Shown here in pieces: positions 54,901 to 61,600 of a stretch of 64,000 bases of DNA. How positions within the stretch are numbered: the first letter of the stretch is position 1; each line of letters starts with the position of its first letter. The position numbers and the translations under genes are program-made. Origin of the DNA: a virus; the IMG/VR virus record IMGVR_UViG_3300024581_003238, positions 1 to 64,000 of that record, one strand, 5' to 3'. The notes below the pieces were generated by a model that ran no database searches, had not been told where the DNA came from, and saw nothing but the letters and a program-made list of their open reading frames with translations.

Positions 54901-57900
54901 TCTCATGAATTTTATACTGATAGTGATGGTGTCGAAAAGATAAGGATTACACCATTCACATATGACACCCAATTATACGTTATAAATCCTGAATACCCCT
55001 ATAATGGAGACCAATACATTCCTGCGGATTTAGATTGTTTAGACCTAAGTACTTTTGATTTCTATTGGGAATCAACTTACTTAACGGGCACAACACAATG
55101 TGATCCTAAAGTTGATGTTTATGGTCCTGGTACTTTCTACACACTACCTGAAGATAGTGATGATTGTATTTTAATGGAGGATGTGTATTTCGAAGTTTCG
55201 GGAGTTACATTTGGTAATGAGGATACTGTTGATGATGGTGATCCGTGTACTGATTGTCCTCCTTATAACACTAGTTGGCCGTTAAATATATTCATAGATT
55301 GTGTTGGTGGATATAATGAAGACATCAGTGGTCATACATATACTGTTGACCATGTATCGGGATGTACTTTTGTTATATATAATGTTAGAGAAAATGATGT
55401 AATCGATATTTCTATAACCGACGCGGCGAACTGTGACCAAAAAGTAAGGATAGAAGGATTACAACAAAAATTTGAATGGGACCCTGTTGATGGTGATGAT
55501 GTAACTACATCGAGAAGTCATTATTTACAATATTCTTTTGAAAGTTATGCGGATGGGGATGATCCTATTAATTCGTCACCACTTGAAAGTCAATCGGGTA
55601 TTACGTTCTGTGATAATTATTCGGGGTATACACTACAACCTATTGTACAATACAGACCGACATTCGATTATGGTCTTAGACAAAATACTAAAGTTATAAA
55701 AGTTAATAATGGTGTTGTTCTCGATGGTAACACAACTTGGGATCAAATACAAACTTATTTTGATGACAATACTTTAGAAAAAATAAACATCGAAAACGTT
55801 GTGATTGGAGATCGATTACTTTCAGGAGTATACAAAGATTGTCCTTTCTCAACTCAAGATTATAGAGACGCGGTTATTAGTGGATACTCTTTCTCTTATG
55901 ACTACAAAGTGGTAACAGTCGAAAATAAAGATTGTTTGGGTTCCACTAAGATCAATAAAATAAATGAAAGGTTTAGTTTTTTACCTAACACAAGATTGTG
56001 GGTAATGACTAAAACAATGGAAGATGGTACTCAGGGTGAGAATTGGAGATTTACTGAAAAATATCCTGAAGAACTATACCCAAGACCTGAAGATCCAACA
56101 GATCCTTGTTGTACCTATCAGGTTGGTTACTATGAAAGTGGTGATTTCATATTTAACGAACATGGTTTCCCTATAGAGGTACTAAAAGTCGATTTGGATT
56201 ACTGTGCTAGAGATTTATTTTATCATTTAAATGTTAGTCCAACATCAGTTTATGATATTCCAACTAACTGTTCTGAAGTTATCCTTTTCAATGGGGACTC
56301 TGAAGATTGTGTATTAGTTGGACATGACGAACAGAAGTTTGAGAATTTGGACATGAAAATGCAACAATACTTCCAAGATAGGTTAGATTGTTCAGACATG
56401 CCGGATATTGATGAGTTGGAAAGAGATCTAACAGGATTGGAGGATTGTGATAATATAAATGTCTTTAAACTTAAACATTATACTTCAGGAGAAATAAAAT
56501 ACGGTAAATTGGACCCCGCGTTTAGTATCGGGGATATTGTTACAGTTATAACACATGTACCTTTAGGTGCATCGGTACAGAGACTATCACCAGGTAAAGA
56601 TTGTTGGGAAATTATTGCTAAAACATATCAACCAAATATCGATTACGATTTGGTCGAAATATGTACAGATTTATTAACCCCAACTCCGTCACCAACAACC
56701 AGTCCGACACCTACTCCAACACCATCACCTAGTCCTACGGCAACACCAACACCAACAATTAGTCCTACCCCTACTAGTACACCAACGCCAACACCTACTG
56801 GTACACCCACACCAACACCTACTAGTACACCAACGCCAACACCTACTGGTACACCCACACCAACACCTACTAGTACACCAACGCCAACTCCAACACCAAA
56901 CTGTGATTTTGATGTAGATACTAATATAGTAACTCCAACACCTACACCTACCGCAAACTGTGATTTTGATATAGATATAGAAGTTGTAACTCCCACACCC
57001 ACTCCCACACCATCACCAACACCGAATTGTGATTTTGACGTAGACATTGATGTTGTTACGCCAACTCCTACCCCCACACCATCACCAACACCAAATTGCG
57101 ACTTTGATATAGATGTGGATGTGGTAACTCCAACACCAACACCAACAACCAGTCCTACACCTACACCTACCGCCACACCCAACTGTGACTTTGATGTAGA
57201 TGTGGATGTAGTAACACCTACACCTACTCCAAGTCCTACAGGTACACCTACTCCAACACCAACACCTAACTGTGATTTTGATATAGATGTAGATGTAGTG
57301 ACTCCAACACCTACTCCGAGTCCAACAAGTACAGCAACACCTACCCCAACTCCAGATTGTGATTTCGATATTGATGTTGACGTGGTAACACCTACACCTA
57401 CACCATCACCTAGCCCAACAAATACACCTACCCCAAGTCCTACAAGTAGTCCAACACCTACTCCGACACCAAATTGTGATTTTGATATTGATGTTGATGT
57501 TGTCACACCTACCCCAACACCATCACCTAGCCCGACTAATACACCTACTAATACTCCAACAAGTACGCCTACTAACACACCAACACCGAGCCCAACAAAT
57601 ACTCCTACTCCAACCCCAACACCTAACTGTGACTTCGATATAGATGTTGACGTGGTAACACCTACACCTACACCATCACCAAGTCCGACTAACACACCAT
57701 CACCAACCCCAACAAGTACGGAGACACCTACCCCCACACCAACTCCATCACCTACCCCAAATTGTGATTTTGATATTGATGTTGATGTGGTAACTCCTAC
57801 ACCAACACCATCACCTACAGCAAGTAGTACACCTACACCAACGGCAAGTAGTACTCCAACCCCAACACCAAGTCCAAGTCCTACTAATACCCCTACACCA

Positions 57901-58581
57901 AGCCCAACACCGAATTGTGATTTTGATATAGATGTAGATGTAGTAACTCCTACACCTACTCCAAGTCCTACAAGTAGCCCAACACCAAGTCCTACGGCGA
58001 CCCCTACTAATACACCAACACCATCACCTACTACTAGCCCTACGGCAACTCCAACACCATCACCTAGTCCTACGGCGACACCTACCCCAACACCAACACC
58101 TACAGGAATTGATTGTCCAATCCCTTGTACCACAACAATAAATTCGGACTTGTTTATTTCAACAAGTTCTGATCTTAGTGGTGTTAATATAAAAGATTTA
58201 GGTGGTTATTGTAACGAAGTTAGGGACGTTAATGGTGATGTTCAGTCTACAAATGGTGAAGAGTGGTACTATGATATTAATACTTGTCTTGTATATGGAA
58301 GAACTTACAATGATCCTAATGGAACTACATGTATCGGTGAATATGTTAATCCTGTGGGAACCGAAGTAAATTCTTTTGTACATACTGACGGAACATTAAG
58401 TCCGACAATTTCAGGTAATAAACTATTTGATTCGGATATAAGATTTATAGATAATAATAATAATGCAATTGTAATTATAACAGAGTGGAATTCGACATTA
58501 ACTTCATTATTACATGTCCACATATTATGTGATTGTAGTTTTGAGGGATCAGCGAATGAAACGGTAATAGACCCTGTATAA
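51991..58581 (+). CDS. Giant baseplate wedge protein (gp7 / P2 gpI-like core) with degenerate Hint domain and [12 protein letters not shown] repeat arm
   Basis: YD..NNIPD.LLK.L..TLG and [20 protein letters not shown] are typical of gp7/gpI-like proteins; repeats seen directly. Confidence 0.7.
56676..58104 (+). repeat. Pro/Thr low-complexity array punctuated by 11 [14 protein letters not shown] motifs
   Basis: Direct translation; includes an exact 48-bp tandem repeat (about 2.5 copies) at 56770-56888. Confidence 0.95.
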
Positions 58582-58610: not shown

Positions 58611-61600
58611 ATGGCAAAAATATTCGACATAAAAATAACATCAGGTACATCACACAGTTTGTACACAATATATTATGATCAAGTTGATGCCTCTAACATT
58701 GCAACAAGAGTTAGTACTTCTTCTTCAGCAACAGGTGTTACATATGCGGATTTAACTAATGGTAATGGAGTTACGGTTTCGGTACCGAATAGTGCAACAT
58801 CAATTCTTTTATATAATAATTCATGTGTAGTAGACGATGAAATAATATTACCAAGCCCAACACCAACAGCAACTCCTACCCCCACTCCAACACCTAATTG
58901 TGATTTTTTAGTAGATATAGAAGTTGTAACTCCCACACCAACACCAACCGCGAGTTCTACCCCCACACCAACACCTACACCATCACCAACAACTAGTCCC
59001 ACCCCAACACCAACACCTACGGCAACTCCAAATTGCGAGTTTGACGTTGATGTGAATGTAGTCACACCAACTCCAACACCATCACCTAGTCCAACAAGTA
59101 CTCCAACACCAACACCAACAACCAGTCCTACTGCAACACCTACACCATCACCTAGCCCAACAAGTACACCTACGCCATCACCGAGCCCAACTGAAACTCC
59201 GACTCCGACACCTAGCCCAACAAGTACACCTACCCCTACACCAACACCTAATTGTGACTTCGATGTTGATATAGATATTAACCGAGCACCTACAGGGTTT
59301 ACACCGATAATATTAACTCAATATGAAAATACCGCAACGGGTACAACTATTGCCACTTTATCTGCGGGAGATCCTGATACGGGAGATACACACACATTTA
59401 GTTTAGTGTCAGGTTCAGGTAGTACAGATAACGCATCATTTACTTTATCAAGTGCAGGTGTCCTTAAAAATGCAGTAGTGTTCAACTATGAAACAAAATC
59501 AAGTTATTCGATAAGAGTAAGAGTTACAGATCAAGGTGGATTAAGTTTTGAAGATACAAGAACAGTATCAGTTCGTAACGTAAATGAAACTCCGTATGGA
59601 TTGACATTAAGTAATAATACACAGAATGAGAATACCGCAACAGGTACTACCATCGGAACGTTCTCAGGTTTAGATGTTGATAGTGGTGAAACATTTACAT
59701 ATACACTTTCGGGAAGTGGTAATGATAACGCATCATTTACTTTATCAAGTGCGGGAGTTCTTAAAAACGCGATAGTATTCAATTACGAAGTTAAAAATTC
59801 ATATAGTATCGAAGTAACGGTTACTGATAGTGGTAATAACACCTATACTGATACATTTACAATTTCAGTCCTTGATGTTAACGAAACACCTACTAATATT
59901 ACTTTATCAAATTCATCTATAGATGAGAATGTACCAACAGGGACTACAATAGGGACATTTAGTTCTACAGATCCTGACACTAATAACACATTTACGTATA
60001 GTTTAGTAAATGGTACAGGGTCATCAGGAAATAATAGTTTCTATATTGACGGTACAAGTCTGAAGAGTAATGTGGTATTCGATTATGAAACACAATCATC
60101 TTACTCTATAAGGGTTAGATCGACAGATCAAGGAGGTCTTTACGTAGAAAAAATATTAACAATATCGATTACAGATATATCAGTATCAGGTACTGCAACA
60201 GTCACAAACTTAAATTGTTATAACGATTCCTCAGGAACAATTGAGGTCACTTCTCAGTCAGGGGGAGTCTCACCATACACATATTCAATTAATGGTATAT
60301 CATATCAATCATCAACGTCATTTACAGGTTTGGGGGCAGGAACATATACTGTATACATTAAAGATGATAATGGTGAGATAGGTACATTCTCGAAAACAAT
60401 AACACAACCACCCGTACTTTCAGTTACCGATTCACACACAGACCCAACATGTTATGGGGGAAGTGATGGACAAATACAATTTTCTGTTGCTGGTGGTACA
60501 GGAGAAATAACTTACACTTTGAATGGTGTTGCAACGACAGATTTACTCCATGAAAATTTAAGTGCGGGTAATTACGTTCTTGTTGCGACAGACGAAAATG
60601 GATGTACTGATAGTAGAACAGTAGTTTTAAATGTAACACAAGTATCCGCAACAGTAACACAATCTAATACCACATGTAACGGAGGTAGTAATGGTTGGAT
60701 TAATGTAACTTCAGCTACAGGAGGATCTGGTAGTGGGTATGAAGTCAAATTAAATAGTAATGGAACATATGTCAGTCTAGGTGACTTTAAGGTATATTCA
60801 AATTTATCGGCTGGGACATATACTATCTATGTTAAAGATGGTGATGGTTGTGAAAGAACATATAGTATAACAATTACGGAACCCGCGGCAGTAACATTCA
60901 CAGAAACACATGTTGACCCAACATGTTGGAATGGTAATGATGGTAGTATTACTGTTTCCGCTTCAGGAGGTAATGGATCTTACGAATATCAGTTTAATGG
61001 TTTTTGGCAATCATCAAATATAAAAACAGGTTTAACGACAGGTAGTCATACTGTAAGAGTAAGAGACGGTAATGGATGTACTTCAAGTATTGGGTCTGTT
61101 ACTTTATCTACCACAAAACCATCTGCAACTATTACGTCCACAAATGTGGTATGTAATGGTGATGACGATGGGACAATATCAGTTTCTAATCCAACAGGTG
61201 GGTCGGGAGCAACATATCAAGTCAAATTAAATAGTAATGGGACATATGTTAACTTAACAGGTACCCAACTTTATGAGAATTTATCGCCAGATACTTACAA
61301 TATCTATATTAAAGATAGTGATGGTTGTGAAGGAATTTTCTCCAAGACCATTACAGAAAACAACGCAGTTACTGCAAGTACTACATCAACGACTCCAACA
61401 TGTTTTGGTGATACTGATGGTAGTATAACGGTAACAGGTAGTGGTGGTACGGGTTCATATACTTATAGTATTGGAAGTGGTTACCAATCTTCAAATAGTT
61501 TTACAGGTTTAGGAAATGGAATTTATTCAGTTAATGTAAAAGACAGTAATGGTTGTGTTGGAACAACAACATTAACCCTATTAAAAACACAAGTAAGTGC

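Follow-up and report, generated by a model that had tools for sequence, protein, structure and literature searches.

A Cys-led repeat on Pro/Thr tethers

The window analyzed here is the 64,000-nt stretch that opens a virus contig of 145,663 bp (IMG/VR record IMGVR_UViG_3300024581_003238), and our subject is a short Cys-led repeat, the "plug," carried by two adjacent genes near its end, together with the "socket," a β domain found at the start of fibre proteins. A six-frame scan of the window places 11 plugs in the open reading frame (ORF) 51991-58581, three in ORF 58611-63878, and none elsewhere (Table 1), the copy numbers given in the original prediction, which was made from the DNA letters alone. 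The consensus proposed there, in the strict form P[ND]CDFD[IV]D[IV]DVV, holds for nine of the 11 copies in the larger protein but not for the other two, nor for any of the three in the 58611 protein, which are variants. The spacers are, as had been described, of the Pro/Thr and Pro/Ser kind, 94% of their residues being Pro, Thr, or Ser. Chance is excluded as the origin of the repeats, because 10,000 shuffles of the 495-aa array gave a mean of 0.0001 matches and a maximum of 1, against the 11 observed. Among the copies, 321/561 same-residue codon pairs are identical, i.e., the copies have diverged synonymously.

When relatives were searched without requiring the Cys, 145 of 146 distinct tethered strands had a Cys two residues ahead of the Phe, which agrees with the single invariant Cys claimed earlier. 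The Pro/Thr tethers of relatives enclose 220 short hydrophobic islands: 174 have one Cys, 163 of these fitting C-x-[FLMIY]-x-[VIGATYLC], and 40 are Cys-free and consist chiefly of Val/Ile/Leu-rich linker. The motif Asp is dispensable, and what is conserved is the Cys with the alternating hydrophobic face behind it. Near-invariant Cys and Phe residues in the presence of diverged codons indicate selection on the motif, which by these comparisons is real, selected, and family-wide. A metal-binding or modification tag, with Cys and Asp as ligands or with the motif marking the Pro/Thr stalks for an enzyme, would suit the Asp-rich character of the motif in this lineage and a late ORF cassette containing, by eye, glycosyltransferase-like and radical-SAM-like members, but it is very improbable in the light of other lineages, where Gly, Val, or Asn replaces Asp and the Cys and alternating hydrophobic face persist.

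The larger protein is here called the scaffold. Its earlier description as gp7-like found no backing in Pfam, PHROG, or PDB sequence searches, the one lead being an Atlas score of 0.78 to a baseplate-wedge cluster, under the tool's 0.9 mark; gene context suggests a baseplate role. No Pfam family was found for the scaffold or its C-terminal domain. In relatives, scaffolds with arrays carry 2-23 plugs each. Two ORFs of relatives (L132:10918-15270 and L145:10918-19026) have two to three plugs in direct tandem at period 11, with no Pro/Thr tether, and plug-like strands are also found directly behind sockets, with no thread between.

Cys-to-Cys periods in the 11-copy array are 19, 23, 23, 29, 29, 29, 39, 51, 45, and 51 (rho 0.96). 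Spacing widens toward the C-terminus in 29 of the 30 arrays that have at least five copies, of which 22 reach p<0.05, a set that covers scaffolds and other fibre proteins and includes close kin and truncated copies. The minimum period is 11, and 329/352 periods are odd. Both regularities would favor a role for the plugs in lashing the thread, by edge binding of their strands, to a repetitive surface of the virion, be it sheath, tube, or another fibre; the widening would then measure out a conical or spiral course, and the gradient occurs in arrays borne by several different proteins. However, no candidate surface was identified, plug-like strands occur threadless behind sockets, and the arrays are related, so that the gradient may be inherited; we consider surface lashing improbable. 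As a separate observation, period steps look like 6 and 10 residues (56902-57945 and related arrays).

β domains at the N-termini of the fibre proteins

What might the plugs bind? Six fibre genes (58611, 63949, 64659, 65848, 66848, and 67958), which together span 58611 to 68674, open with a six-stranded β domain of 80-130 aa, and in the five genes past 58611 this is followed by a Pro/Thr tether and then by variable modules that include a VWA domain. Local profiles sort these sockets into types a, b, c, d, and f, with g and h additionally in relatives. Matches start within 15 aa of the N-terminus in 178/178 a-type, 49/49 b-type, 49/49 c-type, 22/22 d-type, 14/14 g-type, and 12/12 h-type cases, counts that include redundant loci. 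Sequence homology between types is detected for the a-b pair only (96%), other pairs reaching 35% or less. Pfam has no family for the a, b, d, or f sockets, and the 66848 protein has one weak, unnamed PHROG match (E=0.01). Searches of PDB sequences gave chance-level matches only for the a-type profile and only neogenin (E 1-9) for the c-type profile, BFVD contained no match at E≤0.001 (its top entries are two 77-aa uncharacterized proteins of Virus NIOZ-UU157, E 0.01-0.05), and every Atlas match for the socket was below 0.9. A plug follows the first tether in 19/46 a-type matches, and in this phage further plug classes are found behind two of the sockets (d and f) and where the scaffold ends; different plug classes could confer specificity.

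The N-terminal domain of the 58611 protein has a single Cys, as originally noted: C72, within the first 82 aa. Exactly one Cys, placed where the last strand begins, is found in 101 of 111 distinct a-type domains, and exactly one Cys also in 17/21 b-type domains. Could the motif have arisen as a duplicate of the Cys-led strand that ends the domain, together with its linker, and engage in strand swapping or have no partner? In L070 and L072, the last strand of the a type passes as a motif by score, and its hydrophobic register counted from the Cys is similar, but a-type last strands have a median score of -14, with 3% above zero, versus 16 for plugs, and the signs of selection described above also speak against this reading; such a duplicate is highly unlikely. 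A derivation of the plug from the last strand of a cadherin domain was dropped, the register being off by one (by eye).

Several oddities accompany the sockets of relatives. Two d-like domains (L135:19732 and L175:5170) have a short Cys-bearing N-terminal extension, maybe their own strand A. A second small Cys domain seems to be found whole behind a-type sockets and, at N-termini, without its first strand (L062:10807, L066:7999, L193:5272; P0074-P0079), possibly a parallel split-domain system. One 4673-aa ORF (L182:1-14019) is nearly all Pro/Thr linker behind an h-type socket.

FN3-like domains and their first strand in related phages

One ORF of a related cluster (L025:11324-14299) passes the Pfam cut-off for fn3 (PF00041), the fibronectin type III (FN3) family, with E=1e-8 and 35.5 bits versus a cut-off of 25. 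The match begins at profile position 15, which corresponds to residue 3 of the protein, and an in-frame stop lies two codons upstream; this is a single case. In the same ORF, a plug-like strand stands behind the canonical but strand-A-less FN3 domain, which lies at the N-terminus.

Natural fusions also occur. Among 71 f-type matches, 59 are N-terminal, i.e., split, and 12 are internal, always fused behind a c type (c+f fusions: L128:15698-18007 and P0133, P0138-P0149; 12 proteins). The strand ahead of the fused f domain reads [IV]-x-F-x-[IVL]-x, with Ile/Val in the place of the plug Cys. Scored over plug positions +1 to +7, this c-tail strand has a median of 3.5 (21 strands) against a background of -9.9, and it is present in 9/9 clusters that have an f gene, this phage among them, and in 0/7 that lack one, the clusters being kin and not independent. 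An AlphaFold2 model of one c+f fusion (29 rows; mean predicted local distance difference test, pLDDT, 78.8) has six strands in c, with pLDDT mostly >90, and seven in f, the first being the plug-like c tail. The 50 listed VIA matches of this model are chains that contain FN3, as judged from titles or general knowledge; the best has Z 8.9 and a root-mean-square deviation (rmsd) of 2.5 over 70 aligned residues, and 16 chains reach Z 8 or more. A Z near 8 is by itself common, according to the tool's own warning, and it is the uniform match list and the Pfam case that carry weight. Tandem FN3 pairs cover 150-170 residues across both c and f domains, and in several single-domain matches residue 1 of the model aligns to FN3 residue 14-22.

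On the predicted model of this relative's fusion, the assignment of the c and f domains to the FN3 β-sandwich is clear. Because matches begin at position 14-22, strand A is predicted to be absent from the socket chain, and it is regained in the modeled fused f domain. These findings in relatives are the best evidence for donor-strand docking, and the strongest for FN3 domains being split between genes in these phages and rejoined via strand A. In all 12 fused f domains, EHC has become EH[GASM], and a second same-pole Cys has been lost too; the idea that the loss marks a plug-socket bond was dropped, since the two co-lost Cys residues are more simply explained as an internal pair.

Models of the socket and plug of the window

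An AlphaFold2 model of 58611-58934, comprising socket, tether, and plug 1 (42 rows), has six strands (pLDDT ~80-87), and residues 100-106, which belong to the plug, join a sheet at pLDDT ~64. The FN3 fold is weakly indicated for this a-type domain: residues 1-85 match FN3-15 at Z 4.3 (rmsd 3.4, 70 aligned), in segment 402-480, to which the c domain also matches, and weak immunoglobulin matches to residues 1-83 (Z ~3) begin at target residue 13-16. For the socket with a plug of the scaffold in trans, the co-folding proposed in the original prediction, the predicted complex scored 0.36 versus 0.02 for the best of three controls, the runs sharing at least 88% of contacts and the partner having pLDDT 56-57. 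The complex mark is reached by 116/157 solved pairs and 2/215 mismatches; docking of a plug on the window's own socket is therefore a weak pass, because both mismatches but just 18/157 solved pairs reach it at 0.60 or under.

In the f pair, the Cys is missing on both sides, from the f socket where its last strand (G) begins and from its donor strand at position 0, a joint absence that fits a pairing of plug and socket Cys residues. FN3 topology has strands A and G beginning at one pole, and the plug Cys would therefore lie near C72. Given docking, a disulfide lock between plug and socket is an even call.

Proposed plug-and-socket complementation weighed

We propose that the plugs are likely to be donor β-strands that complete, mostly in trans, FN3-like domains lacking their first strand at the N-termini of neighboring fibre proteins. 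The long Pro/Thr thread would be a multivalent scaffold for host-binding arms, putatively anchored at the baseplate. By general FN3 topology, a plug would pair with strand B in antiparallel and with strand G in parallel orientation, with its Cys beside C72, and a disulfide possibly locks the arms, the bond presumably forming after lysis. Plug 1 of the 58611 protein may instead close its own socket in cis, 14-15 aa behind it, and arms that have plugs of their own would form branches or chains. The original claim that each motif completes a partner β-sandwich is supported in part, though indirectly, by the strand-A-less FN3 domains in the gene family, the natural fusions, the cis sheet model, and the weak pass of the complex score.

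Among 31 gene clusters, the 16 with two or more plugs all have a/b sockets, so that the motif without such an N-terminal domain, the case named earlier as adverse, did not arise, and plug number follows socket number (rho 0.79, n=31). All clusters are fragments, and the matrix misses some divergent strands. The expected co-occurrence holds in one direction only, as sockets are also found where plugs are few: because 9/15 plug-poor clusters, with 0-1 detectable plugs, have a/b sockets, long arrays are evidently not needed by sockets, and they look like an amplification in some lineages.

A number of points weigh against complementation. Many clusters were fetched with an a-type query, which inflates the co-occurrence, and 11/15 plug-poor clusters have some Cys-type socket; two clusters (G017 and G023) have three Cys-type sockets and no plug above threshold, divergent strands being visible in these fragmentary contigs. 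The fusions concern a c-to-f pair with Ile/Val for Cys and extend to the 14 motifs by analogy, and sequence does not connect the a/b types with the c type, which is FN3-like (a versus c, hhalign 2.6%). The best structural matches of the a-type model over residues 1-108 are weak C2-like sandwiches (Z 5.9, rmsd 3.6, 91 aligned), a result that a permuted seventh strand lying next to the first might produce. The co-folding models yielded no contacts, so that the register and the Cys-Cys distance are unseen. Unrestricted plug-socket binding would risk uncontrolled networks, and the spacing gradient is accounted for neither by complementation nor by any rival.

Might the plugs instead pair with one another, as a stacked or interchain β zipper with Cys-Cys or Ca2+ bridges that bundles or stiffens the Pro/Thr threads, the N-terminal domains being anchored to another virion site? 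Direct tandem copies at period 11, a commonest short period of 23 that leaves a 12-aa tether, by our estimate about one strand long, and the sockets found without plug arrays would all accord with this. Self-pairing nevertheless leaves the strand-A-less domains, the c+f fusions, and the control-beating complex score unexplained, and an interchain register would be broken by spacing and copy numbers that vary as they do here (2-23 plugs per scaffold); it is unlikely, though the least improbable of the rivals.

If complementation is taken as the preferred reading, which architecture would follow? The arrangement of 11 arms with three further sites each, as originally envisaged, is just one of several possible layouts, because cis closure is possible and the plugs could be shared among the six sockets in more than one way. 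A covalently locked multilevel tree, in which a baseplate protein with 11-23 plugs at graded distances presents plug classes that address different sockets and arms that chain or branch, could be viewed as a viral cellulosome counterpart for adhesins, but it is a tentative and rather doubtful extension.

Table 1. Plugs, sockets, and associated genes (positions in the window)
Feature	Position	Strand	Basis or remark
Scaffold protein, 2196 aa: conserved body (to ~aa 1560), plug array, small C-terminal domain	51991..58581	+	
Pro/Thr/Ser thread, 476 aa, bearing 11 plugs at widening spacing	56677..58104	+	Sequence; Cys codons span 56902 to 57916
Plug 1 (variant)	56902..56931	+	Six-frame scan
Plug 2 (variant)	56959..56988	+	Six-frame scan
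Plugs 3-11, strict consensus	57028..57945	+	Six-frame scan; Cys codons 57028, 57097, 57184, 57271, 57358, 57475, 57628, 57763, 57916
Divergent C-terminal copy, C-x-F-x-G-x-A class, possible 12th plug of scaffold	58534..58563	+	Sequence
Fibre/adhesin, 1755 aa: N-terminal socket, 3 plugs on Pro/Thr tethers, 3 cadherin domains, 11 SprB repeat stretches	58611..63878	+	
a-type socket, six-stranded β domain, one Cys (C72) at start of last strand	58611..58856	+	
Plug 1 of 58611, 14-15 aa behind socket, may complete it in cis	58899..58928	+	Cys codon 58899
Plug 2 of 58611	59034..59063	+	Six-frame scan; Cys codon 59034
Plug 3 of 58611, runs straight into first cadherin domain	59253..59282	+	Cys codon 59253
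b-type socket gene start	63949..64000	+	Continues to genome position 64572
Socket genes beyond window			64659 (c, with VWA), 65848 (d), 66848 (a), 67958 (f)
gp25-like and gp6-like baseplate wedge genes (context)	40228..42514	+	Profile matches

Genomic context and host

Profile matches in the window identify a tail sheath, a gp19-like tube, and gp25 and gp6-like wedge proteins, a gene set by which the virus is classed as a T4-like myophage. A tblastn search of 50,697 GenBank phages with two sockets and the 51077 marker gave zero matches, and therefore there is no cultured model, whereas 543 IMG/VR stretches match the marker gene neighboring the array. SprB repeats are typical of Bacteroidota. 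Pfam finds such repeats in the 58611 protein, and the sole record matched in a GTDB scan is a related 248-kb contig (L195-L198) with the same cluster, inside a Flavobacteriaceae metagenome-assembled genome; the two weakly point to a Bacteroidota host.

Elsewhere in the genome, a 1568-aa protein of the tail region (19749-24455) has a weak OmpA-family match (E=3.5e-4), and two more Pro/Thr-rich ORFs, at 1121-3995 of the window, lack the plug motif. The late cassette, at ~118000-138800 of the genome and hence beyond the window, includes CxxC-bearing radical-SAM-type ORFs besides the glycosyltransferase-like ones and could modify the Pro/Thr stalks.

Relation to known systems

In chaperone-usher pili, donor-strand complementation joins the subunits. 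In TasA fibres, as described in PMC9674648, a β-strand donated by one protein completes the fold of another, and the likeness to both systems lies in that donated strand, which here is predicted from models and fusions. However, those systems, as described, donate one strand per subunit and form a linear fibre, whereas here up to 23 strands lie on a tether, the acceptor is FN3-like without its first strand, and the genes belong to a phage tail cluster. No pilin Pfam match was found in seven scaffold and socket proteins, and the socket proteins open directly with the β domain (by eye). FN3 proper (PF00041), on which the c and f domains are modeled, differs in that strand A is here absent from the chain, and the a and b types match weakly. 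The Bacillus endospore appendages (bioRxiv 10.1101/2020.08.21.260141) are described as combining β-sheet augmentation and disulfides through short connector peptides; their subunits are jellyrolls in a helical pilus, and the disulfide is demonstrated there but only inferred here. In the text of a paper on contractile systems (PMC13266070), "donor strand" refers to sheath assembly.

Cellulosome scaffoldins use cohesin-dockerin docking on Pro/Thr linkers. The repeated sites on Pro/Thr linkers are found here as well, and docking would be the further likeness, but the scaffold bears 11-residue strands rather than folded domains, the cargo consists of cadherin/SprB/VWA adhesion modules, and no cohesin or dockerin Pfam match was obtained in scaffold and socket proteins. 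Also reminiscent are branched phage receptor-binding complexes: in the accounts of KP32/K11/KP34 (PMC13352976), a small N-terminal element attaches secondary host-binding proteins to a primary one, and Ackermannviridae TSP4 (PMC11414711) is described with the same docking layout. Relative to those descriptions, the polarity is reversed here, with the peptide on the scaffold and the domain on the arm, and there are many more sites; at the sequence level, no Pfam or PHROG match to a gp10-like branching domain was found in the 51991 or 58611 proteins. Moraphages (PMC12619734), described as large uncultured aquatic myophages with gp19, gp25, gp6, sheath, and sigma factor genes and predicted Bacteroidota hosts, resemble this phage by that description as a large uncultured myophage with gp19, gp25, gp6, and sheath, but the main text of that paper does not contain the word "cadherin" and mentions fibres once.

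The plug and socket are likely a known principle, the donor strand, in a new fold and architecture, and the largely open-access literature searched gave no description of the motif or of split-FN3 docking in phages. If complementation is correct, a widespread uncultured phage group attaches its host-binding proteins by a connector not found described in phages, in which an 11-residue strand completes an FN3-like domain in trans and repeat number sets the valence. It would explain how adhesins are added or swapped by duplications of ~30 bases; a bushy appendage on the virion is a further prediction. Complementation would also provide a small natural peptide-domain pair in several classes, possibly disulfide-locked, for the testing of which an 82-aa protein and a synthetic peptide suffice.

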